Positions 2,470 to 60,009 of a stretch of DNA of 64,000 nucleotides are shown one piece after another. The position numbers and the translations under genes are program-made. Below the pieces are notes generated by a model. It saw nothing but the letters and a program-made list of their open reading frames with translations, was not told the origin of the DNA and did no database searches. How positions within the stretch are numbered: the stretch's first letter is position 1; the number at the start of each line of letters is the position of its first letter. This stretch comes from Chrysomallon squamiferum (lineage: Eukaryota > Animalia > Mollusca): NCBI GenBank assembly GCA_012295275.1, contig CM022667.1, positions 13,950,001-14,014,000 of the forward strand, in the 5' to 3' direction.

Positions 2470-4065
2470 ATGAAGTGTCTTTTAGCTGTGAGTATTTTCT
2501 CAGGTAAAGTATTATTTTTGTATTAGCATTTAAATATAAACACACATAATTACATTTCCGTCACATTATTCTTTATCAGAGCCAATAGTTTTGAACATTA
2601 AACACACAGGAAATTATTTTTCCATAACTTTACGAAATTTATTATGCAGAAACAACAGAATAAAAAATACTGTAGCGATAAAAGCTCTGTATAATTCTAC
2701 AACAGACAAATTAAATGTTATGCACTTTGCTACTTATACAACATCAAATTCAAGATCTAATTGTTCCGTTTTCAATTTCAGTGACTACGAATTAATTTTA
2801 TCTAATTTTTAGAATTTATATCAGATATGCTTATATACACATACACATACATGCACGCGATTTATTAATATGATAATACCAATAAGAATTTGATTAAATG
2901 TGATAATCATGATATATCGAATTTTCTGGCGTTTAGCCACAGTTCTTATGACAGCTTTGCAAATTTAGTGATGATTACAAATTCTGCAATTTCAGTAACA
3001 ATATACTTGGCTTTTTGTGAATGTCAAAAAGAGTTAGCGCGACGATGCTCAAAAACATATGAAAAGGAAAAACTATTAAAAGACATACCTGAAGTCGATA
3101 AATGCTAGTATGTTTTTTATTTATTTATTTATTTATTTACCTTTTAAAAATTATTCATATGTGAGTTTTTTCTGTTTGGTCGTACCAAACAATTTGTTCA
3201 GTTTCCCAGAAAAACGGCTATAGAATTGTTTTAATTCGTAACTATTAAATACAGTTTCGTTTTTCTGTTCATTTTATAGTTTAAAAATACAATATATATT
3301 ATTAAACTTCGATCTGGTCCAAAACTTCTAGTACTTTTATATTTAATTTGTTATTTTTATACATTTCTTTATTATTAAATTAGTAGTTATATATGACTGT
3401 GTAAAATATACAGGAATATATAACACTCTTTCAGAAGCAAAAATAAATTTTCGTTCAGAGAACGTTTCTGTCAGATCACAAACACTGAAAATATTCGTAT
3501 CTTTCAGTTACGGACAGAAAATGTTGAGCTGTTTGAGACAAGTTGGTTGTGCTAATATTCATGACGAAAGCTTTAAACTCAACGCGCTGAAAACATTCAT
3601 CAGAAACGACTGCAGTATGTTAGCTTATAAGTACAGCTGAATTCAAGTTTGAACATTGTCAAATATTTTTCTTTTTAAATTTTGAAAGTACAAGCCCGTT
3701 TTTACAGCATCCCTATCGATGTTGCATTCTTTATTGAATTCATTGTTGATCTAAAAAAAAACAAAAAAAAACAACAACAACCCCCCCCAAAAAAATGTGT
3801 CTTTGAATATGATAGGTTTAGCAAAAAGTATAATTATGTAGGTATAGATGTCAACTATAATCATTCAGCAGATATCATTATTATTTTTATTACGTTAATA
3901 CTGTCTATGTTAGGTACAGCAAAACATTTCTACTTTAACAAATTAATTGCTATAGTTTAACGATAATTTATGCAGTATAACAGTACACAGAGAGACCCTC
4001 TGTCATTTTTTTCTGTGAAAACAGCCGAATTTTCAACCCTCACTACCTTTCATAATAATACTACA

Positions 4066-4115
<50 letters not shown>

Positions 4116-4615
4116 AGATATAATAAATTTATAATAATATTGCAGAAGCTGACGAAATCACTCTCGATCCGCAATCGGGCAAAGGTAAATTATACATATT
4201 TTACAATTAGCGGTCCTTAGTTTTTAATCTGTGATAATATTCTTTACTGAAGTCACTAAAATGGACTGAAGTAGAAACTATTTGCTCGTACGTACAAGTC
4301 AGCTAAATATTTTATTTCCTAATTATTCTTATCTTTCTAGCGACGAATCTTGATTGTAATAACAAATTATGACGTCACAGGAAACAGAATAAAGCATCCG
4401 AGTGATTTTGTAATTGATAGCGCCATCTTTAGTACTAATAAAAAAATAGTTCCCAAAATCTAATCTACAAGTTATGTCGATAGAAAAATGATCCACTAAA
4501 TATTAACCGATTCAATGGTTTTTTGTTTTGTTTTCCAGGTGAGCACCAGGCACGTAGTTCTCTGTTCTCGATATGGATTGGAGTGATAATCGCGATCGTC
4601 ATTTTAAACAAATAA
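2470..4615 (+). CDS. Member B: 122-aa secreted/GPI-type six-Cys protein
   Basis: Exons 2470-2503, 2996-3107, 3508-3614, 4146-4184, 4539-4615, all GT-AG and in frame: MKCLLAVSIFSVTIYLAFCECQKELARRCSKTYEKEKLLKDIPEVDKCYYGQKMLSCLRQVGCANIHDESFKLNALKTFIRNDCKADEITLDPQSGKGEHQARSSLFSIWIGVIIAIVILNK*. Confidence 0.9.
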
Positions 4616-9904: not shown

Positions 9905-13046
<3,142 letters not shown>

Positions 13047-21220: not shown

Positions 21221-21904
21221 CTATTTGCTTAAAATCACGAACGAGATCACTATTCCAATCCACATCGACAACAGAGATCTGCGTGTCTGGTGCTCAGCTG
21301 TAAAACAAATTGAATCAACAAATATTTGGTAATTCATTTTGAATATTAATAGATATTTGTTACCACGCACACATATTTCAGCTGATTGGTGTAGAAACAA
21401 AAAAACCTAACAGGCGTTCAGAGAAATACTAATCTTATGATATTAGAAAGACTAATCGATCGACAGAAATAAAAATGAGAAGATTCGAAGCTGAAATAAA
21501 AAACGGCGTAGACCGTATTTTTACATAAAGTGAATCAATAACAGTACAAGTGATGATTTTCCTTGTTACATCTAATCTTTTAATAATAAATTTGGACCTT
21601 AAAATTATAATCTCATCTTCAGTAATTATAGTAATTACAGATTCATCTCGGGAAAGAAAACAATCTTTAGGGAATATATTATACATGTTTAGCTTATTTG
21701 TTCGCAGACGAAATAGCAAATTTTAAAACTTTTATTGGATTCAATAGTGAAAGTAGTAATTTTACATACTTAAGCATAGTTAAAATTCTAAACAAGAATC
21801 CTACTGTTAATGTCCTTGAAAATCTCTTACCTTTGCTGTGTGCGGCATGCGGGATCGCTTCTTTACCTTTAATATTATTACACATTTATTATACATTATA
21901 CATG

Positions 21905-21978
<74 letters not shown>

Positions 21979-22412
21979 CCACAGACATACCTTATAGAAT
22001 ATATATATATATATATGCACTAATAAAGTATAGTAAATTATTATTATTATTATTATTATTGTTATTATTATTATTATTATACATTAGTGTTTAACATGTA
22101 AAGAATCATTAAAAATTCAGAGTACCGCAGAATAAATCCAGCATCTTTCTCACTTTCTTTACGTTAAAGGCTTCGTCAGTCTCGCCGAGACAGTTGGTTT
22201 TTGTCAAACAGCTCATCATTGACTGTGATAACCTGAAGTTACAGAACATTTATTATTACTAGTTTATATGGCAAAACCATTCAGTTAAAGTGAAGACAGT
22301 TTGGTTTATGCAACTGCGAATGAAAGAAAAAATATATATAACCAAAATAACTTTACCTATGTACATAGAATATATTTTATAAAAACAGTATTAATAAATA
22401 CATAAATTATGC

Positions 22413-22454
<42 letters not shown>

Positions 22455-23148
22455 AGAGACAAAGAAACAAACAACAAATAAATAACTAAATAAATAAATA
22501 AATAAATAAATCTACTATAATTTATTTTCGTTTGAACATACCGACATTTTGCAGCACTGTTCTCGTCATCGAATCGGAATTCCTGCGTGAAATGAACACT
22601 GCATACTTTCGCTGTGTCTCTGTCACACTGACAAAAAGCCGAGTGTATTGTTACTGAAATAATTAATAATTATGGTTTTGTAGAAATGTCATTAGAACAT
22701 CCCATGAGCGAGAATTAACCGTTCATAAAATTCTTATTGAAGTTATATGAATAATCAATGTGTGTGTGTTTTGTGTCCGCTACTATTTATATATATATAT
22801 ATATATATTTTTTTTTTTTTGAATTATCACATTATATTGTTAGTTTTCTTATTATGTGCTTTACTAAATGTTAAATATTTGATATAAATTATCATAATTA
22901 ACATTCAAAAAAAAACAACAAAAAAAACAAAACAACATAACTTAAAATGAAACTGAAATATCTATAAATAATTGTTTCTTTTAACATAAATATTTACATT
23001 TTATAAACAAAATATTTTATCTGACTCCTCCTTAACGAAACATTATGTTATTTCCTCAATATTTATCTTTTATTACAAATATATATATATAACTATACAC
23101 ATACACACCATATTTCGTAAATATTATGGATATGAATATTATTATCTA

Positions 23149-23212
<64 letters not shown>

Positions 23213-23484
23213 GATAGATAGATAGTAATATTCATATCCACATTTACGAAATATGGTGTGTATGTGTGTATGTGGGTATATATATATAAACACATGCACT
23301 GTCTTGTTTTAAATACAAATATACATACACATAACCTATATATACACAACTGATTTTGAAAAATATATAAATATTATTTTATTTTTGCTTCATTAAGTTA
23401 TGCATGTGTGTGTTTGTGTGAGAGATATATTTGAATATAATATATTTTACCTGACAGAATGCAGATAGCAAATAGCAGCTTCAT
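21221..23484 (-). CDS. Member D: 121-aa six-Cys protein
   Basis: Exons 23484-23451, 22653-22542, 22232-22126, 21866-21831, 21297-21221: MKLLFAICILSVTIHSAFCQCDRDTAKVCSVHFTQEFRFDDENSAAKCRLSQSMMSCLTKTNCLGETDEAFNVRKVRKMLDLFCGKEAIPHAAHSKAEHQTRRSLLSMWIGIVISFVILSK*. Confidence 0.9.
23096..23270. repeat. Hairpin (inverted duplication) centred on (TATC)n/(GATA)n in intron 1 of D
   Basis: ACACATACACACCATATTTCGTAAAT..TGGATATGAATATT on the left is mirrored by AATATTCATATCCA.ATTTACGAAATATGGTGTGTATGTGT on the right. Confidence 0.8.
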
Positions 23485-26048: not shown

Positions 26049-27048
26049 CTATATGTTTAAAATGACGAGCGCGATCATTACTCCAATCCACTTCGAGAAC
26101 ACAGATCTGCGTGTCTGGTGCTCACCTGCAATACAAACATTAAATCAGTTAATATGTAGTGAACCATTTTAATGTTGACGCTTGTTCAGGATCAAGTAAA
26201 CCTTAATATCAGCTTGCTATAGATAGGAAAGCTAGCACTAAAGTCATGTCTAGAACAGACAACGGATATAAAGAGAAATATTAGACGTGTGATGTACCAG
26301 AATCTCTGCAACCCAACGCAATCAAGGTAGTATTGGCGTTCAGTGTAACATGTTGAAAATGTCAAGAGACAGCAGTGTTTAATACACAATTACCATAACT
26401 ATGAGGATAACAAAACCAGTTTTAGGAAATTTCAAAGATGTTTTCAAATCTGTCGGAACATAATATCTGGTTTAGACGATTTTTTGTACTGTTGATCTTA
26501 AATATACAATTACACATAAAAGCTTGCGGTCCATGTGAAAATTAATTTAAATAAACGGGATCCTTAATAAAGAAAAGTTTGGGAACCAGATCTACGCCAT
26601 CGAATGTAACATTTATAACCCAACCGTTCGAGTTAATCAGAAGGGAAATCGAAAAGGATGTAATAAAATGACTTTTATAAATAACTTGGAGTCTGACAAT
26701 TTCTCGTTTTTACTGTCATGTTGTGCTTTATTTTATCATTATGGATTCGATTCTAGAAAGATAAGAACAATTATAAAGTAAACTTAATACATTTAGCTGA
26801 CCTGTACGTACCTGTTTTGTTAAACTTTAAAACTGTCATTACATTAAAAACTAACTTTTGATAGATAAAAATTACATTTCAGTAAATATACATAAAACTT
26901 GCCTTTACTTGATTGAGGATCAAGCGAGATTTCATCTCCAGCTGAAATGTTTTTAGAAATTTATTATATGTACTAGCACGCACACACACACATATACATA
27001 CAATAATAACAGTATCATTAATCAAATTATTATAACTACTAGTACGTC

Positions 27049-27090
<42 letters not shown>

Positions 27091-28285
27091 TGTTATTATT
27101 GTTATTATTATTATTAATACACGTTCGACGTTAGTGTTTAACATTCAAAAATTATTGTGTATAGAGTTAAACGTACCGCAGTTCTCTTTTATTTCCTTTT
27201 TCACTCTTTCTATGTTACCAGTCAGGTCAGTGTTTTGAAGACAGTCTGTGTTTACTGCACAACTCATCATTTTCTGGGCTATGCTGAAGTGTAGTAAATT
27301 TATTATTATTAATTATATGACAAAAACATCGAGTTAAAGTGACGATATTAATTTTGTAAAATTGCGAATGAAATTACGAAAATACATATATAAACAAAAT
27401 ATATTCATTTATGTAGACCTATATAGAAAATATATCTATAAAAACAATAATAATAAATAAATAGATTTTATATAAAAAAACACGAAACAAAACAAAACAA
27501 AAACAAAAAAGCAAATAAATGAATGAATGAATAAATCCACTATAGATTATTTTCGTTCGAACGTACAGACATTTCTCAGATCTTGTCACATCCTCTGTAT
27601 CCATTTTCTGCGCATATTTATCGCCGCATTTTTCGATTTCTGTTACGTTACATTCACAAAAAGCCAAGTGTATTGTTACTGAAATAAATTAAGAACTGTA
27701 GTTTTGCAAAACTGTCATTAGAATTCTATATATATCTACGTAAGTATGTATGTATGTATGTCCATATGTATATTACACAGTTATCAAAGAAGTAGATTGT
27801 TATGAAATTTTAACTTTGTTTTTATTATAATCGTTACTAAACATCAAAACATTTAATATAAATTATTATTAATTAGCACTTAACTAAAATATAACAGAAA
27901 ATAACATTTTACATTTAATGTAGAAAACATTTTGTTTGACTGTAGTTATTGCTACAGTATTTATCTTTTGTTATTACAAATATTATATATATATAATTAC
28001 ACACGTACCTATACACAACAGATTTCGTAAAGACTATACTGTTGTGGATATATATCTAAAAACACATTGCGTTGTCTTTCTTGTTTTAAATACACATATA
28101 TACACAGATACACCTGTATACACGTACACACAACAAATTTCGTAAAGTAAAAACATTTACTGTGTTTTGGGGTTTTGGGGGTGTTTTTTTAAGTATGTAT
28201 GTATGTGTGTGTTCGAGAGAGATTTGAATATAACATACAATTAAATTTTACCTGACAAAATGCAGAGTATTAACAGCAACTTCAT
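26049..28285 (-). CDS. Member E: 122-aa six-Cys protein (GC-AG intron 4)
   Basis: Exons 28285-28252, 27678-27567, 27283-27177, 26941-26903, 26125-26049: MKLLLILCILSVTIHLAFCECNVTEIEKCGDKYAQKMDTEDVTRSEKCLIAQKMMSCAVNTDCLQNTDLTGNIERVKKEIKENCAGDEISLDPQSSKGEHQTRRSVFSKWIGVMIALVILNI*. Confidence 0.88.
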
Positions 28286-28654
28286 CTTTCTGTATACCTG
28301 GAAAATATTTGTTAGTAAATGTGAGTTGGACAAACAAATTATTGAATGTTAATAATTTTTTAATGTTCCAAATAACGTGAAATAATTCGAAAATAATAAT
28401 CTTACAGTTTAGACCTGTGCTTTGTCAGCTGAGGTTTTGCTTTTTCTTTTCTGCTTTTTATTATTATTTTGTTTTTAACTAGAAGTAGTACGAAAAGATA
28501 AAAACACAGAAGAAAAAATGAATGTTTCTTCTCTTTCGTATTAGTAAAATAATAGGTTAAAATTTGTTTTTACGTGTAAGAAAAGTTAATAATAATAATA
28601 ATAATAAAAAATAAAAAAACTAGGTTCTTTACCGTTAATGACGTCCTGTACTAA

Positions 28655-28668
28655 ATTACGTCATTTCC
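28655..28668 (-). promoter_or_regulatory. Conserved GGAAATGACGTAAT element (CRE/ATF-like) upstream of family genes; representative copy
   Basis: Found upstream of every member with a visible 5' end, exact or near-exact: 1996-2009, 9313-9326, 23802-23814, 28655-28668, 33925-33938, 39168-39181, 45806-45819, ~49643-49654, 54849-54862, 58026-58039, 63275-63288. It is always co-oriented with the gene. Confidence 0.65.
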
Positions 28669-29106
28669 TATCTTAGTTACACTGTCATAAAATTATAACT
28701 TTTCCGATTATAATCGTTACTAAACATGAAAACATTCAATATAAATTATTATTAATTAGCACTTAATTAAAATATAACTGTAAATAAATATTTAAATTTA
28801 ATATACAAAACATTTTGACTGCAGTTATTGCTACAGTTTTTATCTTTTGTTATTACAAATGTAATAAATACACACAACATATTTCGTAAAGAATATACTG
28901 TTGTGGGTATATATAAACACACTGAGTTCTGTACTGCTGTTTAAAATACACACACATACACCTATATATACGTACACACCACAGATTTAGTAAAATATAT
29001 AAAACACTGTCTGATTCGGGTTTTTTCGGCTTTTCTTCTTCTTTTTTTTAAATATGTATGTGTGAGTGAGAAAGAGATTTGAATATAATACACAATTAAA
29101 TTTTAC

Positions 29107-29140
29107 CTGACAAAATGCAGAGAACGAATAACAATTTCAT
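29107..29140 (-). pseudogene. Orphan signal-peptide exon (MKLLFVLCILS) upstream of E
   Basis: Intact ATG, 34-nt length and GT donor, but the upstream acceptor reads CTAC instead of CTAG and it has no exon 2 of its own. Confidence 0.7.
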
Positions 29141-29308
29141 ATTACTCTTTATATAGTAGGAAAAATATTTGTTAATAAATATGAACTCGATAAACGACTC
29201 GGTGAATGCCAATACTTTTTTGTAGCGTTCCAAACAATGTGTAGTAATTTGAAAATACTAATCTTGCAGTTTAGACCTATGCTTTCTCAGCAGAGGTTTT
29301 GCTGCTTC

Positions 29309-29390
<82 letters not shown>

Positions 29391-29532
29391 CGAAAAGATC
29401 CAAAACAATTATTGAATGTTTCTTCTCAAGCATAAAAATTATCATAAAATAATTATTTACTTTAAATTTATACCTAATTTACCCATCAAAAAAAAAAAAA
29501 AAAAAATAAAAATTAAATATTAAAATAATAAA

Positions 29533-29572
<40 letters not shown>

Positions 29573-30031
29573 TTTAAAATTAATAACATGAAAAAGAATC
29601 AAATCTTGTTTTCTATCACAGATATGGTGTGCCTGTTTCTGCATAGACTGTTAAACCTCCAGTAAGTAAAACTTTAAATTACTTTTGTTTAGCTTTGCAC
29701 GAGATTTATTAATAGTAAAGACTATGCCATATATTTAACATATTTGTCATTAAAAAGTCCCCATGAAACATGTCCCATATTTTTGGTTAAGGAGAACAAT
29801 TAGCTGAATTTGCGAATACAGGTTAAGTACATTCTGTCACCAGTTTTAAGATGTTTCGCACACCCACGGACAGATAGATACACCAACACATAAATACTCA
29901 CACACATTACGAAACGAAAGAAAAACTTGAAAATACATTATAACAAATGCTGATATTAGGAACATTAATTTATTTTTAAACAGGATATATCTCCAAATTC
30001 ATAACATTGTAGAATAAATTATTTACTCATG

Positions 30032-30111
<80 letters not shown>

Positions 30112-31250
30112 GATTATTATTAAAGATAGATGTGTTTGAGGCTTAGACACTGAAGTACACTATATACAGAACCATATTTATTTACCCTGCAATTTTCAGT
30201 GAACGTAATATTTTTTGTTTATTTATTTATTATCAAATTATTCATTTATTTTACATTATTTTATTTTTGGTCAAATATTCATTTGTTTCCCTAAGAACAT
30301 TGTCACGAAATTGTAACCTTTCTTATTATAATCGTTACTAAACATCAAAACATTTAATATAAATTGTTATTAGTTGGCATTTAACTAAAATATAACTGAA
30401 AATAAAGATTTCTATTTAATGCACAAAGCATTTTGTTTCGCTGCAGTTGTTTCTATGGTATTCAATTCATGAATCCTGTTAACAGCATCTTTGTGTATCT
30501 TTCTAAATATAGAAAAACATTACCAAAATTCACTGTAAATAAATAAAAATATAAAAGATAAAATAAATAGTAATAATAATTTTAAAAATTCTATGTAAAG
30601 AAGTAAGAAAATGTACAAAGTATAATTTTGAAGGCTTCAAACTCTGGCGATATTTTCTGTGTACGTGCTAACAGATAAGGTCATATTAAAAGGGAAATAT
30701 ACAGAGTTAGATTAGGATATTCACCCTTATTCCAACAGTTAAATGCATATATTACACATGACTTAAATCGATAACTCAGCATGCAAAGTCTGCTAACTTA
30801 GATTTTTATGATAACACCAGTGGCGTGCAAATGGGGGTATCAAAAGAAAGGGGGGGGGGACATCCGATCAGAGAAAAGAACTTAATAAATATGGTTGATT
30901 TATATTTAAATCGAATTGTTTATTTTATGTTTAATCTGTGTTTACATATTCAAAATATCTTCCTTTCTCATAACATTTCTCAGTACCAGGCCATATTCTT
31001 GAGTCTTTGGGGCATACAGTCAAGGAGTTGGCCCTGGATATCACCAGACCTCTGTAATACACTAGACAACACTGTAACGAATGCTGTTAAATAGCAACAT
31101 TAATTTATTTTTCAATACAGATAATAAGTTAATTATACTTCTTAATTATCAATTTGATTTTAATTTAATTATTATTCTTTTGTTTAAATTTATTAATGAT
31201 AGAAGTCTGAGAGGCTTAGACACAGGCGATTTGTTGAATATCTATTTTGT

Positions 31251-32255
31251 CTATTTGTCTAAAATGACGAGCGCGATCATTACTCCAATCCACATCGAGA
31301 ACACAGATCTGCGTGTCTGGTGCTCACCTGCAAAAGAAACATTAAATCAGTTAATATGTAGTGAATCATTTTAATGTTGACGCTTGTTCAGGATCAAGTA
31401 AAACTTAATATCAGCTTGCTATAGATAGGAAAGCCAGCACTACAGGCATGTCTAGAACAGACAACGGATATAAAGAGAAATATTAGACGTGTGATGTACC
31501 AGAATCACTGCAACCCAACGCAATCAAGGTGGTATTGGCGTTCAGTGTAACATGTTGAAACTGTCAAGAGACAGCAGTGTTTAATATACAATTACCATAA
31601 CTATGAGTATAAAAAACCAGTTTTAGGAAATTTCAAAGATGTTTTCAAATCTGTCGGAACATAATATCTGCTTTAGACGATTTTTTGTACTGTTGATCTT
31701 AAATATACAATTGCACATAAAAGCTTGCGGTCCATGTGAAAATTAATTTAAATAAACGGGATCCTTAATAATGAAAAGTTTGGGAACCAGATCTACGCCA
31801 TCGAATGTAACATTTCTAACCCAAGCGTTCGAGTTACGCAGAAAGGAAATCGAAAAGGATGTAACAAAATGACTTTTATAAATAACTTGGAGTCTGACAA
31901 TTTCTCGTTTTTACTGTCATGTCGTGCTTTATTATTATCATCATGGATTCGATTCTAGAAAGATAAGAACAATTATAAAGTAAACTTAATACATTTAGAT
32001 GACCTGTACGTACCTTTTTTAGTAAACTTTAAAACTGTCATTACATTAAAAACTAACTTTTCATACATAAAAATATATTTCAGTAAATATACATAAAACT
32101 TGCCTTTACTTGTCTGAGGATCAAGCCAGATTTCATCTCCACCTGAAATGTTTTTAGAAATTTAATACATGTATTAGCGCACACAGGCACACATACACAT
32201 ACACATACAATAATAATAGTATCATTAATCAAATTATTATTACTACTAGTACGTC

Positions 32256-32304
<49 letters not shown>

Positions 32305-33186
32305 ACACGTTCGACGTTAGTGTTTAACTTTCAAAAATGATTATGTATAGAGTTAAACGTACCGCAGTTCTCTTTTAGTACCTTTTTCAGTCTTTCTATG
32401 TTACCAGTCAGGTCAGTGTTTTGAAGACAGTCTGTGTTTATTGTACAACTCATCATTTTCTGGGCTATGCTGAAGTGTAGTAAATTTATTATTATTAAAT
32501 ATATGACAAAAACATCGAGTTAAAGTGATGATATTAATTTTGTAAAATTGCGAATGAAATTACGAAAATACATATATAAACAAAATATATTCATTTATGT
32601 AGACCTATATAGAAAATATATATATGTAAAAACAATATTAATAAATAAATAGATTTTATATAAAAAAACACGAAACAAAACAAAACAAAAACAAACAAGC
32701 AAATAAATGAATGAATGAATAAATCCACTATAGATTATTTTCGTTCGAACGTACAGACATTTCTCAGATCTTGTCAGATCCTTTGTATCCATTTTCTGCT
32801 CATATTTATCGTCGCATTTTCCGATTTCTGTTATGTTACATTCACAAAAAGCCAAGTGTATTGTTACTGAAATAAATTAAGAACTGTAGTTTTGCAAAAC
32901 TTTCATTAGAATTGTGTATGTATGTATGTATGTATGTATGTATGTATGTATGTATGTATGTATGTATATCCGTAGGTATATTACACAGTTATCAAAGAAG
33001 TATATTGTTATGAAATTGTAATTTTGTTTTTATTATAATCGTTACTAAACGTGAAAACATTTAATATAAATTATTATTAATTAACACTTAACTAAAATAT
33101 AACAGAAAATAAAGTTTTACATTTAATGTAGAAAACATTTTGTTTGACTACAGTTATTGCTTCAGTATTTATCTTCTTTTATTACA

Positions 33187-33234
<48 letters not shown>

Positions 33235-33521
33235 GTACAAACGTACCTATACACAACAGATTTCGTAAAGACTATACTTTTGTGGATATATATCTAAAAA
33301 CACATTGCGTTGTCTTTCTTGTTTTAAATACACATATATACACAGATACACCTGTATACACGTACACACAACAAATTTCGTAAAGTAAAAACATCTACTG
33401 TGTTTTGGGGTTTTGGGGGTGGTTTTTAAAGTATGTATGTGTGTGTGTTCGAGAGAGATTTGAATATAACATACAATTAAATTTTACCTGACAAAATGCA
33501 GAGAGTTAACAGCAACTTCAT
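31251..33521 (-). CDS. Member F: 122-aa six-Cys protein (GC-AG intron 4)
   Basis: Exons 33521-33488, 32866-32755, 32469-32363, 32142-32104, 31327-31251: MKLLLTLCILSVTIHLAFCECNITEIGKCDDKYEQKMDTKDLTRSEKCLIAQKMMSCTINTDCLQNTDLTGNIERLKKVLKENCGGDEIWLDPQTSKGEHQTRRSVFSMWIGVMIALVILDK*. Confidence 0.88.
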
Positions 33522-33822
33522 CTTTCTGTATACCTGGACAATATTTTTTAGTAAATGTGAGTTGGACAAACGACTTACTGAATGTTAATAATTTTTTAAT
33601 GTTCCAAATAACGTGAAATAATTCGAAAATAATAATCTTACAGTTTAGACCTGTGCTTTGTCAGCTGAGGTTTTGCTTTTTCTTTTCTGCTGTTTATTAT
33701 TATTTTGTTTTTAACTAGAATTAGTTCGAAAAGATAAAAACACAGACGAAAAAATGAATGTTTCTTCTCTTTCGTATTAGTAAAATAATAGGTTAAAATT
33801 TGTTTTTAGATGTAAGAAAAGT

Positions 33823-33889
<67 letters not shown>

Positions 33890-34375
33890 CTAGTTTCTTT
33901 ACCGTTAATGACGTCCTGTACTAAATTACGTCATTTCCTATCTTAGTTACACTGTCATGAAATTTAACTTTTCCGATTATAATCGTTACTAAACATGAAA
34001 ACATTCAATATAAATTATTATTAATTAGCACTTAATTAAAATATAACTGTAAATAAATATTTACATTTAATATACAAAACATTTTGACTGCAGTTATTGC
34101 TACAGTTTTTATCTTTTGTTATTACAAATGTAATAAATACACACAACATATTTCGTAAAGAATATACTGTTGTAGGTATGTATAAACACACTGAGTTCTG
34201 TACTGCTGTTTAAAATACACACACATACACGTATATATACGTACACACCACAGATTTAGTAAAATGTATAAAACACTGTCTGATTCGGGGTTTTTCGGCT
34301 TTTCTTCTTCTTTTTTTCAAATATGTATGTGTGAGTGAGAAAGAGATTTGAATATAATACACAATTAAATTTTAC

Positions 34376-34409
34376 CTGACAAAATGCAGAGAACGAATAA
34401 CAATTTCAT
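34376..34409 (-). pseudogene. Orphan signal-peptide exon upstream of F
   Basis: Copy of 29107-29140 within the 5.2 kb unit. Confidence 0.7.
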
Positions 34410-34628
34410 ATTACTCTTTATATAATAGGACAAATATTTGTTAATAAACATGAGTTCGATAAACGACTCGTTGAATGCCAATACTTTTTTGTAGCGTTCA
34501 AAACAATGTGTAGTAATTTGAAAATACTAATCTTGCAGTTTAGACCTATGCTTTCTCAGCAGATGTTTTGCTGCTTCTATTATTATGATTATTATTACTA
34601 TTACTATTACTATTATTATTACTATTAC

Positions 34629-34671
<43 letters not shown>

Positions 34672-34777
34672 CGAAAAGATCCAAAACAATTATTGAATGT
34701 TTCTTCTCAAGCATCAAAATTATCATAAAATAATTATTTGCTTTAAATTTATACCTAATTTACCCCTCAAAAAAAAG

Positions 34778-34830
<53 letters not shown>

Positions 34831-35329: not shown

Positions 35330-35372
<43 letters not shown>

Positions 35373-36498: not shown

Positions 36499-38764
36499 CT
36501 ATTTGTCTAAAATGACGAGCGCGATCATTACTCCAATCCACATCGAGAACACAGATCTGCGTGTCTGGTGCTCACCTGCAAAACAAACATTAAATCAGTT
36601 AATATGTAGTGAATCATTTTAATGTTGACGCTTGTTCAGGATCAAGTAAAACTTAATATCAGCTTGCTATAGATAGGAAAGCCAGCACTACAGGCATGTC
36701 TAGAACGGACAACGGATGTAAAGAGAAATATTAGACGTGTGATGTACCAGAATCACTGCAACCCAACGCAATCAAGGTGGTATTGGCGTTCAGTGTAACA
36801 TGTTGAAACTGTCAAGAGACAGCAGTGTTTAATATACAATTACCATAACTATGAGGATAACAAAACCAGTTTTAGGAAATTTCAAACATGTTTTCAAATC
36901 TGTCGGAACATAATATCTGCTTTAGACGATTTTTTGTACTGTTGATCTTAAATATACAATTACACATAAAAGCTTGCAGTCCATGTGGAAATTAATTTAA
37001 ATAAACGGGATCCTTAATAAAGAAAAGTTTGGGAACCAGATCTACGCCATCGAATGTAACATTTATAACCCAACCGTTCGAGTTACGCAGAAGGGAAATC
37101 GAAAAGGATGTAACACAATGACTTTTATAAATAACTTGGAGTCTGACAATTTCTCGTTTTTACTGTCATGTCCTGCTTTATTATTATCATTATGGATTCC
37201 ATTCTAGAAAGATAAGAACAATTATAAAGTAAACTTAATACATTTAATGTACTTTTTGGTAAACTTTAAAACTGTCATTACATTAAAAACTAACTTTTCA
37301 TACATAAAAATTATATTTCAGTAAATATACATAAAACTTGCCTTTACTTGTCTGAGGATCAAGCCAGATTTCATCTCCACCTGAAATGTTTTTAGAAATT
37401 TAATACATGTATTAGCGCACACAGGCACACATACACATACACATACAATAATAATAGTATCATTAATCAAATTATTATTACTACTAGTACGTCTACTATT
37501 ATTATTATTATTATTATTATTAATACACGTTCGACGCTAGTGTTTAACATTCAAAAATTATTATGTATAGAGTTAAACGTACCGCAGTTCTCTTTTAGTA
37601 CCTTTTTCAGTCTTTCTATGTTACCAGTCAGGTCAGTGTTTTGAAGACAGTCTGTGTTTATTGCACAACTCATCATTTTCTGGGCTATGCTGAAGTGTAG
37701 TAAATTTATTATTATTAAATATATGACAAAAACATCGAGTTAAAGTGATGATATTAATTTTGTAAAATTGCGAATGAAATTACGAAAATACATATATAAA
37801 CAAAATATATTCATTTATGTAGACCTATATAGAAAATATATATATAAAAAAACAATATTAATAAATAAATAGATTTTTATAAAAAAAACACGAAACAAAA
37901 CAAAACAAAAACAAACAAGCATATAAATGAATGAATGAATAAATCCACTATAGATTATTTTCGTTCGAACGTACAGACATTTCTCAGATCTTGTCAGATC
38001 CTTTGTATTCATTTTCTGCTCATATTTATCGTCGCATTTTCCGATTTCTGTTATGTTACATTCACAAAAAGCCAAGTGTATTGTTACTGAAATAAATTAA
38101 GAACTGTAGTTTTGCAAAACTTTCAAAAATTTCATTATGTAATGTATGTATGTATGTATGTATGTATGTATGTATGTGTGTATGTATCCGATTATTTTCG
38201 TTCGAACGGTTTTGTCAGATCCTTTGTATCCATTTACACATTTAGGTATATTACACAGTTATCAACGAAGTATATTGTTATGAAATTGTAATTTTGTTTT
38301 TATTATAATCGTTACTAAACGTGAAAACATTTAATATAAATTATTATTAATTAACACTTAACTAAAATATAACAGAAAATAAAGTTTTACATTTAATGTA
38401 GAAAACATTTTGTTTGACTACAGTTATTGCTTCAGTATTTATCTTCTTTTATTACAAATATTATATATATATATATAATGAGACACGTACCTATACACAA
38501 CAGATTTCGTAAAGACTATACTGTTGTGGATATATATCTAAAAACACATTGCGTTGTCTTTCTTGTTTTAAATACACATATATACACAGATACACCTGTA
38601 TACACGTACACACAACAAATTTCGTAAAGTAAAAACATCTACTGTGTTTTGGGGTTTTGGGGGTGTTTTTTTTAAGTATGTATGTGTGTGTTCGAGAGAG
38701 ATTTGAATATAACATACAATTAAATTTTACCTGACAAAATGCAGAGTGTTAACAGCAACTTCAT
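36499..38764 (-). CDS. Member G: 122-aa six-Cys protein, two residues different from F (GC-AG intron 4)
   Basis: Exons 38764-38731, 38086-37975, 37689-37583, 37380-37342, 36575-36499. Differs from F by D>N (MNTK) and T>A (SCAINT). Confidence 0.86.
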
Positions 38765-39065: not shown

Positions 39066-39099
<34 letters not shown>

Positions 39100-39100
39100 C

Positions 39101-39132
<32 letters not shown>

Positions 39133-39619: not shown

Positions 39620-39653
39620 CTGACAAAATGCAGAGGACGAATAACAATTTCAT
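39620..39653 (-). pseudogene. Orphan signal-peptide exon upstream of G
   Basis: MKLLFVLCILS plus GT donor; copy of 29107-29140. Confidence 0.7.
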
Positions 39654-39842: not shown

Positions 39843-39887
<45 letters not shown>

Positions 39888-42638: not shown

Positions 42639-43179
42639 CTATTTGTCTAAAATGACGAGCGCGATCATTACTCCAATCCACATCGAGAACACAGATCTGC
42701 GTGTCTGGTGCTCACCTGCAAAACAAACATTAAATCAGTTAATATGTAGTGAATCATTTAAATGTTGACGCTTGTTCAGGATCAAGTAAAACTTAATATC
42801 AGTTTTCTATAGAAAGGAAAGCTTATATTTATAACTTGGAGTCTGACAATTTCTCGTTTTTTTCTGTCATGTCGTGCTTTATTATTATCATTATGGATTC
42901 GATTCTAGAAAGATAAGAACAATTATAAAGTAAACTTAATACATTTAGCTGACCTGTACGTACCTGTTTTGTTAAACTTTAAAACTGTCATTAGATTAAA
43001 AACTAACTTTTGATAGATAAAAATTACATTTCAGTAAATATACATAAAACTTGCCTTTACTTGACTGAGGATCAAGCGAGATTTCATCTCCAGCTGAAAT
43101 GTTTTTAGAAATTTATTATATGTACTAGCACGCACACACACATTCACATAGAATAATAAAACTACTAGTCCGTCTACTC

Positions 43180-43226
<47 letters not shown>

Positions 43227-45350
43227 AGACGTTCGACGTTAGTGTTTAACATTTTGGAAGTCATTTTGCATAGAGTTAAACGTACCGCAGTTATCTTTCA
43301 TTTTCAATTTCACAATATTTATATTTCCAGTCAGATCATCTTCTTCAAGACAATCAGTGTTTATTGCACAACTCATCATTTTCTGGGCCAAGCTGAAGTG
43401 TAGTAAATTTATTATTATTAATTATATGAAAAAAACATCGAGTTAAAGTGATGATATTAGATTTGTAAGATTGCGAATGAAATTAATAATAAAAAAAATA
43501 TATATATATACAGGGTGTCCCAAAATTAACCGAACCGCAAACTTACATAAAATTAGATATTAAAAACAACAAATTTAATATGTATATTTAGTATTTGCAA
43601 ATGTTCTAAATGTCTACCTTGAACTTCAGTACAATCACGACACCTTTTGACAACACTGCGACATACTTTTTGGCAAGTTTCCACTGAAATTTGGTTCCAT
43701 TCGTGCTGAATACTTTGTTTCAGTTGATCAGTGGTCCTAGATTTATTAGCATAAACTGCGTTTTTTAGAACTCCCCATAGAAAGAAATCAGGTAGGTGTC
43801 AGATCCGAGGATCTTGCAGGCCATTCAATTGGTCCACGGCGTGAACAGTATTAACATGAACAGTATTAAAAGACTGCATCACAGACGTCCGCATTGTCGC
43901 GGTGAAACAGAAGTCTCGACCATGAAGAAGACTACAATCAGGTAACAAAAATCATTCCAAAGACTGACAGAAGTAAATGAATAGTACAAAAGATAACATA
44001 AAATGACATAAAAGATGGAATTAAATTTGTTATTTTTAATATCTAATTTTATTTAAGTTTGCGGTTCGGTTACTTTTGGGACACCCTGTATATATATATA
44101 TATATATATATATAAACAAAATGTGTTCATCTATGTAGACCTATATAGAAAATATATCTGTAAAAACAGTATTAATAAATAAATACATTTTACATTAAAA
44201 AAAACCCCAAAACCAACAACAACAAAAAAACAAAAACACACGAAAAAACAGACAAGCGAATGAATGAATGAATGAATGAATAAATCTACTATAGATTATT
44301 TTCGTTCGAACGTACACACAAATCTCAGGTTTGGTCAGTTCCTCGGTTTCGATTTTCTGCGCATATTCATCGCCGCATTTTCGGATTTCAGTTATGTTAC
44401 AGTCACAGAGAGCCAAGTGTATTGTTACTGAAATAAATTCGGAACTATAGTTTTGCAAAACTGTCATTAGAACTGTGACCGATCATCAGAACGTGGGATT
44501 TAATAGAATTAGCAGTTTAAAAAATTCTTATTGAAATTATGTGAATATTTGGTGTGTGTCTGTGCTTTTGTCCACCGTTATATATATATATATATATATA
44601 GGCATTTCTAGGACAGACAACGGCTAAAAAGAAAAATATTAGACCGTGATGTACCAGAATCTCTGCAACCCAACGTAATCTAGTTGGTATTGGCGTTCAT
44701 ATGTATGTATGTATGTGTGTATGTGTCTATATATGTATGTATGTATATCTATCTATATGTATATTACACAGTTATCAAAGAAGTATACTGTTATGAAATT
44801 GTAATGTTTTTTTTTTTATTAAATTCGTTACTAAACGTCAAAACATTTAATATAAATAATTATTAATTAGCACTTAACTAAAATATAACTGAGAATGAAA
44901 ACTGAAATAACTACAAATAACTGTATCTTTTAAATAAATATTTACATTTAATGCACAAAATATTTTGTTTGACTGCAGTTATTGCTACAGTATTTATCTT
45001 TTGTTATTACAAATATTATATATAAATAAATAAATAAATAAATAAATAAATATATATATATATATAACTACACACGTACATATATACAACAGATTTCGTA
45101 AAGACTATACTGTTGTGGATATATATCTAAAAACACATTGCGTTGTCTTTCTTGTTTTAAATACACATATATACACAGATACACCTGTATCACGTACACA
45201 CAACTAATTTCATAAAGTATATACATCTACTGTCAGTTTTGGGGTTTTGGGGGTTTTGTAGGTATGTATGTGTGTATGTGAGAGAGATTTGAATACAACA
45301 TACAATTAAATTTCACCTGATGAAATGCAGATAGCGAAGAGCAGCTTCAT
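42639..45350 (-). CDS. Member H: 122-aa six-Cys protein (GC-AG intron 4)
   Basis: Exons 45350-45317, 44427-44316, 43392-43286, 43093-43055, 42715-42639: MKLLFAICISSVTIHLALCDCNITEIRKCGDEYAQKIETEELTKPEICVLAQKMMSCAINTDCLEEDDLTGNINIVKLKMKDNCAGDEISLDPQSSKGEHQTRRSVFSMWIGVMIALVILDK*. Confidence 0.88.
43511..44088 (-). mobile_element. Internally deleted Tc1/mariner element (578 bp) in intron 2 of H
   Basis: About 69-bp TIRs beginning CAGGGTGTCCCAAAA, flanked by TA. The minus strand retains a frameshifted transposase C-terminus, WPARSSDLTP/DFFLWGVLKNAVY...GRHLEHL. It is absent from the homologous TA tract in E, F and G. Confidence 0.9.
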
Positions 45351-46761: not shown

Positions 46762-48968
46762 CTATATGTTTAAAATGACGAGCGCGATCATTACTCCAAT
46801 CCACATCGAGAACACAGATCTGCGTGTCTGGTGCTCACCTGCAAAACAAACATTAAATCAGTTAATATGTAGTGAATCATTTTAATGTTGACGCTTGTTC
46901 AGGATCAAGTAAAACTTAATATCAGCTTGCTATAGATAGGAAAGCCAGCACTACAGGCATGTCTAGAACAGACAACGGATATAAAGAGAAATATTAGACG
47001 TGTGATGTACCAGAATCACTGGAACCCAACGTAATCAAGGTGGTATTGGCGTTCAGTGTAACATGTTGAAAATGTCAAGAGACAGCAGTGTTTAATATAC
47101 AATTACCATAACTATGAGGATAACATAACCAGTTTTAGCAAATTTCAAAGATGTTTTCAAATCCGTCGGAACATAATAACCCCTTTAAACGCTTTTTTAT
47201 ACGGTTGATCTTAAATGCAATTACACATAGCAACCTACGGTTCATGTAAAATTTAATTTAAATAAATGTGATCCTTAATAATGAAAAATTTGGGAACCAG
47301 ACCTAACCAGACGATTCAAGTAGAAATCAGGTATCATCGAATGCAACATTTATAACCCAGCTGTAATAATTATAACGTAAACTTAACACGTTTAGCTGTC
47401 CTATACGTACCAGCGTTGTTAAACATTAAAACTTTGTATACATTAAAAACTAGCTTTTCATATATGAAAAATTATATTTCAGGAAATACATGTAAAACTT
47501 ACCTTTACTTGATTGAGGATTAAGCGAGATTTCAGAATACCCTGAAATATTATCAAGAATTTGTTATATGTACTTAAACACACACACAAACACACACACA
47601 CACACACACAGACACACACAAACGCAGTAATAGTATCTTTAACATATCACTGTTATGAAAGGATGGCGTTCATTGTTAAACATTCGACTATTTTCATATT
47701 TCGATTCTCGTGAAAGTTGTGTGCGAGCGTCTACTGAAATTTAATGATTTCCGTAGCTGAATCTTATTATACTTTTCAATACAGAGACACTGACAGAAGG
47801 TCTCCGTGTATGCTGTTATATACTAACTAAAATTCCACGGTTTAACTAAAGATACATGAATTACAAGTCTCTTTTCAAATATTTACCAATCGATTTGTGT
47901 TGAAATGGATTAGTGATTTAAAATATTTTATGTAGATTCATGTGGACTGAACTCACTGAATACATAAGCAAACATACCGCACACTTCCTTCGAAAACTTC
48001 TGCAGGCTTTTTATAGTAGTTGCAACCCGTTGATCTGCCATACAAAATGCGTCGCTTATACAACTTGCCATTTTCTGTGTGTAACTGAAAGATACGCATT
48101 ATTTTCATTATTGATTTAATGACAGAAACATTAAGTTAATGAAACATCAGACTGGATTATAAAATAGGCGTGCAAAATTTATGTATGCATATATGTATGA
48201 ATACATAATATATATGTACGTATGTGTGTAAGTGTGTGTGTGTGTGTAGTCGTATTTCTTTGTGTGCATGTGTGTGAACTGAATACGTGTGTATGTTGGT
48301 GTGTACAAGTACTCAAAAAACAAAAAATTATAATAAGACAAATTTACAGGGTAAATACAGTCGTATGTATATTTAGCAGATACGAATTATACAGGCTTTG
48401 TAATTTTCTTTTTTTGTTGTATCTGTACTACCAAACCACAGCAAACAAAATATAAATGTTTTTTAAATTAATAAATAAACAGACAAACAAACAAATAAAC
48501 AAATTAATAAAGAAAGAAAGACAGAAACAGAAATAATTGAAATACTAATAAACTAGGTGATTTTGATATAAACTTACTAGCATTTATCGTCGTTGGTTGT
48601 AGATTGTAGGTTTATTTCCGTTTTGTATGTTTGTTCACACTGGTTAACTGTTGGAAGATCACAGTCTTGACAAAAAGCCAAGTATATTGTTGCTGAAAAT
48701 GGTAAGTTTTGTATCAGAACTGTGGAGTTCAGAACATTCGATATAACGTAGTTATGAAACTGTTATTTCTAAAGTTTGACATTAATTTATTACATTTCGA
48801 ATATATTTTTTTTCTTTTCTTAATGTCGACACATTTGATAAAAATTATAAGAATTAGGTTCAGATTATACTATCATTATTGAAAATAATCTTAACAATTA
48901 GATTTAGAGTTTTGTCTTGCAGACATAGGAAAGTACATAACAGATTTTGATAAACTATAATAACAAAA

Positions 48969-49008
<40 letters not shown>

Positions 49009-49135
49009 AAAAATATATATATATAAAAATACAAATTAAAAAATATCTATTTTTTTACTATTTGTGTTCATGTTTAAAAGTAATAAAAAATAATACTTTA
49101 CCTGAGAAAATACCGAAAGCAAACAGATTCTTCAT
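46762..49135 (-). CDS. Member I: 123-aa six-Cys protein
   Basis: Exons 49135-49102, 48692-48578, 48084-47978, 47541-47503, 46838-46762: MKNLFAFGIFSATIYLAFCQDCDLPTVNQCEQTYKTEINLQSTTNDDKCYYTQKMASCISDAFCMADQRVATTIKSLQKFSKEVCGYSEISLNPQSSKGEHQTRRSVFSMWIGVMIALVILNI*. Confidence 0.9.
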
Positions 49136-51123: not shown

Positions 51124-51968
51124 TCACATGGCGAGTGCGATCATTATTCCAATCCACATCGAGAACAGAGATCTGCGAGCCTGGTACTCACCTGCAAAAC
51201 CAAAGTTATTAAAGATCCAGTAAACATTAATATCAGCTTGCTATATACAGGCAAAACAGTCCTTCAGGCATTTCAACTTACAAGAGCAGGCAATGGATAT
51301 AAAGAGAAATACGAGTCCTTTGATATATACCAGAATGTCCGTATCCCAACGTCATCAAGTTGGTATTTGGAGTTCTTCGAAATGTTGACAATGTCAAGAG
51401 ACAGCAGTGCTTTTTTTTTTTATATACAAATACCACAACTATGTGGATAACAAAACCAATTTTAGGAAATTTCAAAGATCTTTTCAAATCTTTGGTAACA
51501 TAATAATTGTTTTAAACGCCTTTTTATACAGTATTTCTTAAACATAATTATACTGATTTTGAGAATATTTATTCATAATAGCCTGCGGCCCATCTGAAAA
51601 TTAATTTAACTAAAAGTGATCCTTAACACTGAAAATGTCTGTGAACCAGACCAAATCAATCGATCGATACAGAAATTAGGTAAGATCGAATGTAACATTT
51701 ATAACCCAGCTGCTCAAATTCCGCCAACGGAAATCGGAAATGACGTAACAAAGAAAAACAAAACGTTACCAGCATTGATAAACTTTAAAGTTTTCATTAG
51801 ATTAAAAACTAACTTTTCGTACACAAAAACATGTAGTTCAGTAAATATACGTAAAACTCACCTTCATTTGTCTGAGGACCAAGCGAGATATCAGTGTCCT
51901 CTGAAATATTATTAGAAAGTTCTTATATGTACTTGAACACATACAACACAGTCACACACATCTCCAAC

Positions 51969-52026
<58 letters not shown>

Positions 52027-52973
52027 CGCAGTACTAGTATCTTTGACATATCACTGTTATCAAATGATAGCGTTCATTGTCAAACATTCGACTATTTTCA
52101 TATTTCGATTCTTGTCAAAGTTGTCTGCGATCGTCTACTGAAATTAATCATTTCCACAGCTGAAGTCTTATTAACTTTTCAATAAAATCTTCCCAACAGC
52201 GACAGAGACAGGTGATCTCCCTGAATATTCTTACGCTGCATAAATGACACGGTTTTTCGCTTAAAATATATGAAATTTTAAAGTCCAGTGATTACTAAAT
52301 CGATTTATTTTGAAATAGATTAGCGATTTAATAAAAAATTTCGAAAATATATTATGCAGCTTCACGTGGATTCGGATATTTAACTCTCTGGAAATATTAT
52401 GTACTTAAGCAAACATACCGCACACACGATTCATGTATTGCTTCAGTTTTGTTATTTTAGGCCTCGTCATTTCATCTTTTAAGCAAAATCCTTCCACTAT
52501 ACAGCCCAACATTTTCTGTGTGTAACTGAAAGATACCAATTATTTTCCTTATTTATTTAATGACAGAAACATTGTCAATGAAAGATCATTTCATGAAATA
52601 GCCGTGCGAATATATGTATGAATATATGTATGTATAAATAACATGTGTGCATTTGTACGTATACGTATGTGTGTAGGTGTGTAAACAAACACGCACATAC
52701 GAGCTCACACAACTATTCAATAACAATTAATTAAAATAAGCAAAATGTATCTTGAAAGCTTATATCGAAAGTAATCCCGATTGTCGATTTTTCCGGTTTT
52801 CTGTGCCAAGACTAAATAATATACATGTATATTTAAAATGTAAATACAGTCGTATGTGTATTTAGCAGATACGGATTAATACAATTATAAAGCTTTGTTT
52901 TATTTTTTATTTTTTTTTCCAAACAACAGTAAACGGTATATAAACGGTATAATATTTAAATAAACTAACAAAG

Positions 52974-53025
<52 letters not shown>

Positions 53026-53031
53026 AAATAC

Positions 53032-53065
<34 letters not shown>

Positions 53066-53757
53066 GAAGAAAGAAAGAGAAGTAATTAAAAGACTAATAA
53101 ACTAGGTGATTATGATGTAAACTTACTAGCATTTACTTATGTCGTCTGAAGATTCTAAGCTAAGTTCCTGTCTGTATGTTTTTTCGCAATGATTAACAAG
53201 GTCATGATTACACACTTGACAAAAAGCCAAGTTTATTGCTGCTGAAAATGTTAATTTTTTTAAATTAGAACTGTGGAGTTCAGAACATTCGATATAACGT
53301 AGTTATGAAACTGTTGTTACTAAAGTTTGACATTAATTTATTACATTTCGATTTTTTTTTTCTTTTCTTAATGTCGACACATTTGATAAAAATTATAAGA
53401 ATTAGGTTCAAACTATACTATCATTACTGAAATTGTAATCTTAACAATTAGATTTAGAGCTTTGTCTTGCAGACATAGGAAAGTACATAACATATAATTT
53501 GGCTGTTTCAGATTTACACATTATAAAATTATCACTACAGTGTTTTTATTTAATTATTGCTTATGATGCTTACAACATCTTTTGATAAACTATAATAAAA
53601 AAAAAAAATAATAATAAAAAATAAATCAATAAATCAATAACAATAAATAAATAAACAATAATGTCACGGAAAACATAACTGTTTGTGTTTATGTTTAAAA
53701 GTAGTAAAAAAATAATACTTTACCTGAAAAAATACCGAGAGCAAACAGATAATTCAT
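51124..53757 (-). CDS. Member J: 120-aa six-Cys protein (stop 3 codons earlier than paralogs)
   Basis: Exons 53757-53724, 53241-53127, 52525-52419, 51900-51862, 51191-51124: MNYLFALGIFSAAINLAFCQVCNHDLVNHCEKTYRQELSLESSDDISKCYYTQKMLGCIVEGFCLKDEMTRPKITKLKQYMNRVCEDTDISLGPQTNEGEYQARRSLFSMWIGIMIALAM*. Confidence 0.87.
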
Positions 53758-58225: not shown

Positions 58226-59288
58226 ATGAAATTACTGTTCCCTCTCTGCATTCTGTCAGGTAAAATTTAATTTCTTATTATATTTAAATATTTTTCTTTC
58301 ACAGACACATGCATACATACTGAAGAAAAATATTACTGTTTATGTGTTATTAGTACTATTATTATTAATTGTCATATACCTACTATATATAAAGACAAAA
58401 CTGTAGACTTAGCATGTTTCATTCAGCAGTAGTACATTAACGTATGCATTTATTTTTGAAACATGATTATTTACAGTTTTTAATTTCATTTTCTGTAATA
58501 TTTTAGTTTAATGCTAATTCTTTGCCATTCACCAGATATTCATTCATATAACGCCAATAAGAAAACTTAATAATAAACTGCTAATTCTGTTACATGGTAT
58601 GTTGTAACGACATTTTTGAATACATTGTTTATTTCAGTAATAATACACATGGCTTTTTGCGAATGTGATACTGACGCAGCGAAAACGTGCAGAATTGAAT
58701 TCTTGCACGAAGTCGATCGTGCAAAGCGCAAAGCTGATAAATGCCGGTATGTTCGTACGAAAATAAGCTATATAGATTTTCTTTTTTTTTTTTTTTTTTT
58801 TGTTGTTGTTGTTGTTGTTGTTTTTTATTTATTTATTTATTTATTATTATTTTTTACGTATCACTTATTTATTCAGTAATTAACTGATTAATATTGCTTT
58901 TTGTATTGTCAAGATTATATACATTTCCTTCATTCGCAATCACTGTCATAAACCAAACTGTTTTTACTTTAATTGAATATTTTTGCCATATAACTAATAA
59001 TAATAAATGTTCTATACTTCAGCATAGCACAGAAAATGATGAACTGTTTCATAGAAACCAACTGTTTTAATAACCAAACCAAGACTGGTGAAATACCAGC
59101 CCTGAAAAAAGTACTGAAGGAGAACTGCGGTACGTTTTCTTCACATGTTAAACACCAACGTTTTCACAACAACAACAACAACAACAACAATAATAATAAT
59201 AAATAATAATAATTAAAATAGTAATAATAGTAATAACAATAATTAATACATCTACATATATATGTATATACATACATATATATGTATG

Positions 59289-59336
<48 letters not shown>

Positions 59337-60009
59337 CTATCTCTGTGTCTCTGTCTCTGTAATAATATTACAGGTGGTGTCATTGTCCCACGCGCTGCAC
59401 ATAGCAGAGGTAAGTGATTCTTAAGTACATTAATAGCAGGATTCTTGTTTAGAATTGTAATTATGTGTAAGTATGTAAAATTACTACTTTTAAAACGTTT
59501 AAACGTTGCTATTTCGTCTGCGGGAAAATCATCTCAATATGTACAATATATTCCCTAACGACTGTTTTGTTTCTCGAGACGAATCTGTAATAATAACAAT
59601 AATAATATGGCGATGTAATCTTAAGATCCAAATTTATTATCAGAAGATTAGATGTAACAAGGCAAATCATCACTTGTACTGTTATTGATTCACTTTATGT
59701 AAAAATACGGTCTACGCCGGTTTTTTAATTTTATTTCAGCTTCGAGCTTCTCATTTATATTTCTGTCGATCGATTAGAGAACTTCTATTATCATAAGATT
59801 AGTATTTCTCTGAACGCCTGTTAGATTTTTTGTTTCTGCACCAATCAGCTGAAATATGTGTGCATGCTAACAAATATATGTTAATATTCAAAATGAATTA
59901 CCAAATATTTGTCGATTCAATTTGTTTTACAGCTGAGCACCAGACACGCAGATCTCTGTTGTCGATGTGGATTGGAATAGTGATCTCGTTCGTGATTTTA
60001 AGCAAATAG
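58226..60009 (+). CDS. Member K: 120-aa six-Cys protein
   Basis: Exons 58226-58259, 58638-58746, 59023-59129, 59374-59409, 59933-60009: MKLLFPLCILSVIIHMAFCECDTDAAKTCRIEFLHEVDRAKRKADKCRIAQKMMNCFIETNCFNNQTKTGEIPALKKVLKENCGGVIVPRAAHSRAEHQTRRSLLSMWIGIVISFVILSK*. Confidence 0.9.

Follow-up and report, generated by a model that had tools for sequence, protein, structure and literature searches.

Mosaic genes and divergence peaks over the cysteine exons in an apparently orphan tandem gene family of Chrysomallon squamiferum

Introduction

Do two neighbouring tandem genes that differ only by amino acid replacements in their cysteine-rich exons record positive selection? The question is raised by a stretch of 64,000 nucleotides from the mollusc Chrysomallon squamiferum (assembly GCA_012295275.1, contig CM022667.1, positions 13,950,001 to 14,014,000 of the forward strand), hereafter the window, in which five-exon genes form a tandem family. 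Genes E and F of this family differ at 11 sites in the two exons that encode a six-cysteine domain, and an original prediction, made from the letters of the sequence, held that all 11 change amino acids and suggest positive selection. Here we report that the 11 differences are genuine and all non-synonymous, and that positive selection between E and F is not demonstrated by them. The stronger pattern in the locus is the mosaic structure of the genes together with a divergence peak on the cysteine exons. The cluster encodes a rapidly diversifying, apparently orphan family of predicted surface proteins.

Results

Mosaic genes and a divergence peak on the cysteine exons

Ten complete copies of the family, B to K, lie in the window, whose DNA is AT-rich and of animal type (GC content 21-37%). 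Each encodes about 120 aa: the N-terminus is hydrophobic, exons 2 and 3 supply a six-cysteine domain, and a short linker leads to a C-terminal tail that is hydrophobic as well. All ten are intact, with an open frame, canonical splice sites and all six domain cysteines, which are invariant across exons 2-3 of the ten copies. In gene E, all four modelled introns are joined in RNA sequencing run X7, with one contig for each joint.

The two ends of the genes tell different histories. Over its first 68 nt, exon 5 shows 0/68 differences among F, G, H and I, and likewise between D and K, while exon 3 differs at 48-52 of 107 nt when I is compared with F, G and H or D with K (48/107 for D and K). A clade of E, F, G, H and I was rejected on the tree of the cysteine core (approximately unbiased test, AU, p=0.001), and intron 4 tracks exon 5, with 7.5% divergence for E/I and 21% for I/J. 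Identical exon 5 sequences, the AU test and intron 4 are all evidence of sequence exchange among the paralogs, and the mosaic probably arose by gene conversion or unequal crossing-over.

The cysteine exons stand out as a peak of divergence. Between H and E, exons 2-3 differ by 17-21%, introns 1-2 by 6-7% and everything from intron 3 onward by ~4%; across exons 1-3 as a whole the range is 17-27%, against 4-7% across introns 1-3. In this pair the peak extends to silent sites: in codons unchanged between E and H, third positions differ at 8 of 40 sites, whereas the introns show 38 differences over 652 sites (p=0.003), and a synonymous excess over the flanks in unchanged codons was seen for B/C too. 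In four older, non-overlapping pairs (EH, IJ, DK and BC), the maximum-likelihood (ML) non-synonymous divergence (dN) of the core is 3.2-4.2 times the intron divergence and the ML synonymous divergence (dS) is 3.4-12 times the intron divergence, with a dN/dS ratio (omega) of 0.35-1.2. The cysteine exons of older pairs are thus 3-4 times more divergent than their alignable introns, and core dS exceeds 1 in many paralog pairs. CpG hypermutation was rejected as a source, the synonymous E/H changes not being located at CpG. Selection likely protects the cysteine exons from conversion.

Two further observations concern genes F and G. Their upstream regions (33522-35450 and 38765-40700) differ by 2.8%, the same as from that of E, and their introns 1-2 by ~0.5%, so a recent homogenisation of the gene body in F and G is likely. 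Intron 1 of G also contains a short insertion (38190-38240, minus strand) whose sequence duplicates the junction between exon 2 and intron 2. It is closer to exon 2 of F than to that of G itself, having the D38 state, and points to templated copying on a local scale.

Eleven replacements between E and F

Codon-by-codon comparison of E and F gave the replacements that had been listed, six in exon 2 (V23I, E27G, G30D, A34E, E40K and V42L) and five in exon 3 (A58T, V59I, V76L, E79V and I80L), with no synonymous change and no cysteine affected. Over the whole coding sequence (CDS), the pair has 18 non-synonymous and 2 synonymous changes; of the latter, one is at codon 94 and the other is among the two hits in codon 6. 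The original prediction had added two further replacements between F and G; both are indeed non-synonymous, but the change at codon 58 is specific to F and already counted in the E/F list, so the distinct changes among E, F and G number 12 instead of 13. By branch, these 12 non-synonymous and 0 synonymous changes divide into 4 on E, 6 internal, 1 on F and 1 on G; the single synonymous F/G change is in exon 1. An import of codons 76-80 of F/G from K was considered and rejected, as three synonymous differences persist in the tract.

How unusual this count is depends on the neutral expectation. The probability of ~0.04 first given for 11 of 11 assumed that 75% of random changes are non-synonymous, which is too low for codons as AT-rich as these; with the intron mutation spectrum, 0.797 is expected and P(11/11)=0.083. 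Four mutation spectra gave values of 0.044-0.088, freezing the cysteines gave 0.066, and overall the exact neutral probability for the pair is ~0.07-0.08. At the intron rate 1.7 synonymous changes would be expected, and zero has a probability of ~0.18. Strong purifying selection on the E/F cysteine exons is rejected, as had been argued, with P(11/11) of at most 0.011 at omega of 0.5 or less.

The next question is whether classical positive selection (omega > 1) drove E and F/G apart, a reading that we consider doubtful and that may coexist with the explanation favoured below. It draws on the 12:0 count over four branches and on a core dN of 11/175 (6.3%) against 134/3776 (3.5%) at non-coding sites, an excess of ~1.8-2 times (Fisher p=0.055) that reaches p=0.018 for the non-synonymous rate of the whole CDS (18/283). 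The joint probability of at least 11 non-synonymous and no synonymous changes is 0.014, for a corner picked post hoc, and a chi-square likelihood-ratio test for dN/dS > 1 gives p=0.022, which is too generous at a zero count. Against these values stands the exact neutral probability already given, by which neutrality is not rejected; what survives of the suggested positive selection is a lean. The nature of the changes likewise speaks against it. Five of the 11 do alter charge, as had been pointed out, but this is at chance level (40% expected, p=0.47), as is the sparing of the cysteines (p=0.33), and neither was retained as evidence of selection; the enrichment is instead in conservative V/I/L swaps (5/11 against 11.5% expected, p=0.005, post hoc). 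Positive selection between E and F is therefore not demonstrated: the 11:0 count is compatible with omega of 1-3 and cannot choose within that range. Alone, it is a borderline statistic that would not surprise a specialist.

Site models across the family

Site models had been proposed as a check, and we fitted them to the ten intact paralogs with our own Python implementation rather than PAML, using naive empirical Bayes; M7, M8a and M8 had fixed relative branch lengths. Under M0, core omega is 0.67-0.75. Without rate variation, M2a is favoured over M1a (core p=0.013-0.09; whole gene p=1e-6 to 2e-8), although tested singly exon 2 gives p=0.23-0.54 and exon 3 p=0.04-0.22. The significance of plain M2a and M8 is lost once site rates vary: with gamma rates, which scale synonymous and non-synonymous rates alike, the omega > 1 signal is gone: twice the log-likelihood difference (2dlnL) drops to 0.00 on the whole gene and to 0.19-0.83 on the core. 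For the whole gene, the null model with rate variation surpasses plain M2a by ~20 log-likelihood units.

When 21 data sets were simulated with omega set to 2.6 at 27% of sites, 2dlnL was never below 2.89, above every value observed with site rate variation, and 14 of the 21 were significant, so the loss of signal does not reflect low power only. An omega near 1 suits about 80-90% of core sites, whereas the other 10-20% hardly change. The whole-gene M2a/M8 p-values were rejected as confounded by the faster synonymous change in the core. Ignored rate variation is a known route to false positives in site models (10.1101/174839), and gene conversion has been named as another (PMC3924837). The present cluster is a clear case of site models calling positive selection when rate variation is ignored.

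Relaxed constraint, hypermutation and assembly error

Relaxed constraint combined with chance would account for the data if redundant copies drift, the 11:0 count was picked post hoc, and the peaks over the exons stem from constraint on introns, from alignment bias or from the import of exons from distant copies. The neutral probability of 0.083, or 1 in 12, precedes any correction for the choice of pair and exons, and omega=1 fits most sites; intron 2 is unusually conserved between E and F (2/213 differences against 57/1390, p=0.018), and B and C have in common a near-identical stretch upstream of exon 3. We nevertheless find this account unlikely. Frame, splice sites and cysteines are kept in every one of the ten copies although core dS is > 1 in many pairs, and the E/F introns diverge by 3.7%, like the intergenic flanks (3.0-4.5%), which argues against a general constraint on introns.

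Exon-targeted hypermutation, which would raise all substitutions in the cysteine exons, is very improbable: dS of older pairs is far above intron divergence and the I/J differences are near-equal over codon positions (27/23/22), but the absence of synonymous E/F changes argues against it (P=0.002-0.004 at an exon-wide 4-fold rate), and the E/H codon positions (14/6/19) show a purifying pattern.

As to read or assembly errors, a contig of RNA run X7 matches 27567-27669, which spans all six exon 2 sites, with 0 differences. Letters in public runs were checked at 3 of the 11 sites, among 40 of 163 difference rows listed. At those 3 sites the F-type letter is present in all 3 DNA runs, which come from 3 studies and one of which is possibly the source of the window itself; the E-type letter is present in DNA runs at 2 of the 3, and among the rows listed no E-type letter occurs at 27204 in the three runs. 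The RNA match of E exon 2 and the presence of both letter types in public runs mean that the differences are not errors, which settles a doubt attached to the original prediction. That they are errors nonetheless, or that a tandem assembly of two alleles has produced E and F, is scarcely credible: a single assembly is at hand and contig depth was rejected as a measure of copy number, which it cannot give, but E-type exon 2 is transcribed, F-type letters recur across studies, and the pair diverges by ~3.5% along the entire 5.2 kb unit.

Protein architecture and searches for homologs

All ten copies have the layout of a signal peptide and a C-terminal hydrophobic stretch that follows a polar spacer with small residues. 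Hydropathy maxima over 15 residues are 2.0-2.7 at the N-terminus and 2.0-3.0 at the C-terminus in the ten copies, and at most 1.1 in the core. From this layout, the tail is predicted to be a glycosylphosphatidylinositol (GPI) signal and the protein to be GPI-anchored; layout and evolution together suggest that the domain forms a recognition surface and that its role is most likely surface recognition. Gene E is unique in having a lysine within the otherwise hydrophobic tail (codon 109, window position 26092), which might weaken anchoring.

A word-index search with alignments of exons 2, 3 and 5, covering longer proteins only, found no homolog, and a HMMER search with an exon 2 profile gave 0 matches among 1.84 billion representatives. 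With single exons as queries, a Pfam scan (36-41 aa) returned only two weak unrelated rows, a PDB sequence search 0 matches, and the ESM Atlas no usable match for either of two queries. Negatives from single-exon queries of 36-45 residues are weak. Structure models of single exons were helical and poor (predicted local distance difference test, pLDDT, of 53 and 64); Foldseek with a single-exon model other than that of exon 2 gave 0 matches, and the best VIA-align Z of 3.1, again for a single-exon model, is uninformative. Literature searches by family description found no matching family. By these single-exon sequence searches and the literature, the family is apparently orphan and undescribed. 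Its cysteine spacing may resemble that of small cysteine-rich helical domains such as the Pfam families CPG4 and DUF19, to neither of which the single-exon Pfam scan gave a match; the trait in common would be helices that carry cysteines in close pairs, within invertebrate proteins that are secreted or lie at the surface.

Other features of the locus

Coordinates are collected in Table 1. The donor of intron 4 is GC in E (26901-26902) and at the equivalent positions of F, G and H, and GT in the other copies; the RNA joint in run X7 is consistent with it. Genes E, F and G are each preceded, at a distance of ~855-890 bp, by a second intact copy of exon 1 with a start codon, 34 nt and a GT donor, and the extra copies are possibly an alternative first exon or promoter. 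A non-coding block of ~160 bp (27790-27961) recurs with ~80-89% identity within intron 1, ahead of exon 1 and within spacers, and is possibly a regulatory element or a small repeat. Between C and D, a higher-GC region (14300-19470) in which direct and inverted repeats, 250-1450 bp long, lie nested and which has no long open reading frame is possibly a nest of non-autonomous transposons.

Table 1. Positions in the window of the gene copies, their parts and related elements (S, synonymous; N, non-synonymous)
Feature	Position	Strand	Remarks
Copy A, last exon	616-696	+	partial copy at window end
Gene B	2470..4615	+	intact
Gene C	9905..13046	+	intact
Gene D	21221..23484	-	intact
Gene E	26049..28285	-	five coding exons, 122 aa; introns joined in RNA run X7
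E exon 1	28285-28252	-	signal
E exon 2	27678-27567	-	six-cysteine domain, part
E exon 3	27283-27177	-	six-cysteine domain, part
E exon 4	26941-26903	-	linker, GC donor
E exon 5	26125-26049	-	hydrophobic tail
E exon 2 sites differing from F	27646, 27633, 27624, 27612, 27595, 27589	-	all non-synonymous
E exon 3 sites differing from F	27258, 27255, 27204, 27194, 27192	-	all non-synonymous
Gene F	31251..33521	-	intact; exons 33521-33488, 32866-32755, 32469-32363, 32142-32104, 31327-31251
Gene G	36499..38764	-	intact; differs from F at 3 coding sites (1 S, 2 N)
Gene H	42639..45350	-	intact
Gene I	46762..49135	-	intact; chimeric, cysteine exons J-like
Gene J	51124..53757	-	intact; tail 3 aa shorter
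Gene K	58226..60009	+	intact; inverted relative to D
Copy L, first exon	63654-63687	+	partial copy at window end
Truncated exon 5	55958-56018	+	remnant
Decayed exon 2 start	60814-60865	+	remnant
Extra exon 1 copies	29107-29140, 34376-34409, 39620-39653, 40824-40857	-	fourth one within partial duplicate
Copies of the ~160 bp block	near 28683, 30293, 33953, 35547, 39196, 41696, 44784, 60441		

Discussion

The explanation that we favour, at about even confidence, is that E and F arose by recent tandem duplication within a family of ten copies, in which residues of the cysteine domain evolve at roughly the neutral pace or a little above it, with conversion likely homogenising the introns and the anchor exon and selection likely keeping the cysteine exons distinct. 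As read from the mosaic, unequal crossing-over would create new copies and conversion would homogenise the introns and the anchor end. The cysteine scaffold would be held fixed while residues between the cysteines are tolerated, and conversions that erase differences between the heads would be selected against, as in a divergence-peak model. E and F would then be young duplicates in which this process has only begun, and 11 changes are too few to tell weak diversifying selection from plain tolerance.

Several observations weigh against this explanation. The non-cysteine exons of E and F are equally fast (7/108, 6.5%). Intron divergence in the older pairs is biased low, being taken from alignable blocks only (349 sites for BC, 252 for DK), and the intron/exon ratio of ~0.2-0.3 in most pairs fits intron constraint as well. 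No clear synonymous excess appears in the unchanged codons of I/J (3/26) and D/K (4/20), so the ML dS of these pairs rests on multi-hit codons. Selection on the cysteine domain does not account for the second peak of divergence in H, over exon 1, which encodes the signal peptide, and a donor of the H exons elsewhere in the genome is possible.

Tentatively, and short of even confidence, the cluster may be read as a lineage-specific family of GPI-anchored six-cysteine recognition proteins, a receptor array with variable heads and a constant anchor, in which conversion evens out the introns and the anchor exon, selection maintains the differences among the heads, and E/F is a new specificity arising. 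If true, this would be a new invertebrate surface-protein family with the signature of a recognition system, whether in immunity or in symbiont, gamete or self recognition, and a compact multi-copy test case for selection opposing gene conversion.

Among known systems, a close parallel in pattern is that of the primate red and green opsin duplicates, for which PMC3924837 reviews a divergence peak under gene conversion and the model of Teshima and Innan. The likeness lies in tandem paralogs with homogenised introns and a divergence peak, synonymous sites included, on certain exons; the window family differs in having ten copies instead of two and in a coding exon, that of the anchor, which is homogenised as well. 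Exons that evolve faster than introns are also described for conotoxins (10.1101/107672) and venom phospholipase A2 (PLA2; PMC7285919), and the conserved cysteine framework, the variable residues between the cysteines and the excess of exon over intron divergence found here resemble that pattern. Unlike those toxins, the window family has a hydrophobic C-terminal tail in all ten copies and no propeptide, and its signal exon is not uniformly conserved. Single exons gave no Pfam or PDB match that would place it with conotoxins or venom PLA2, and the conserved tail predicts a membrane-anchored protein rather than a secreted toxin. The family probably belongs to none of these groups. Its evolutionary signature is of a known kind, recalling the divergence peak of the opsins and the fast exons of conotoxins and PLA2.

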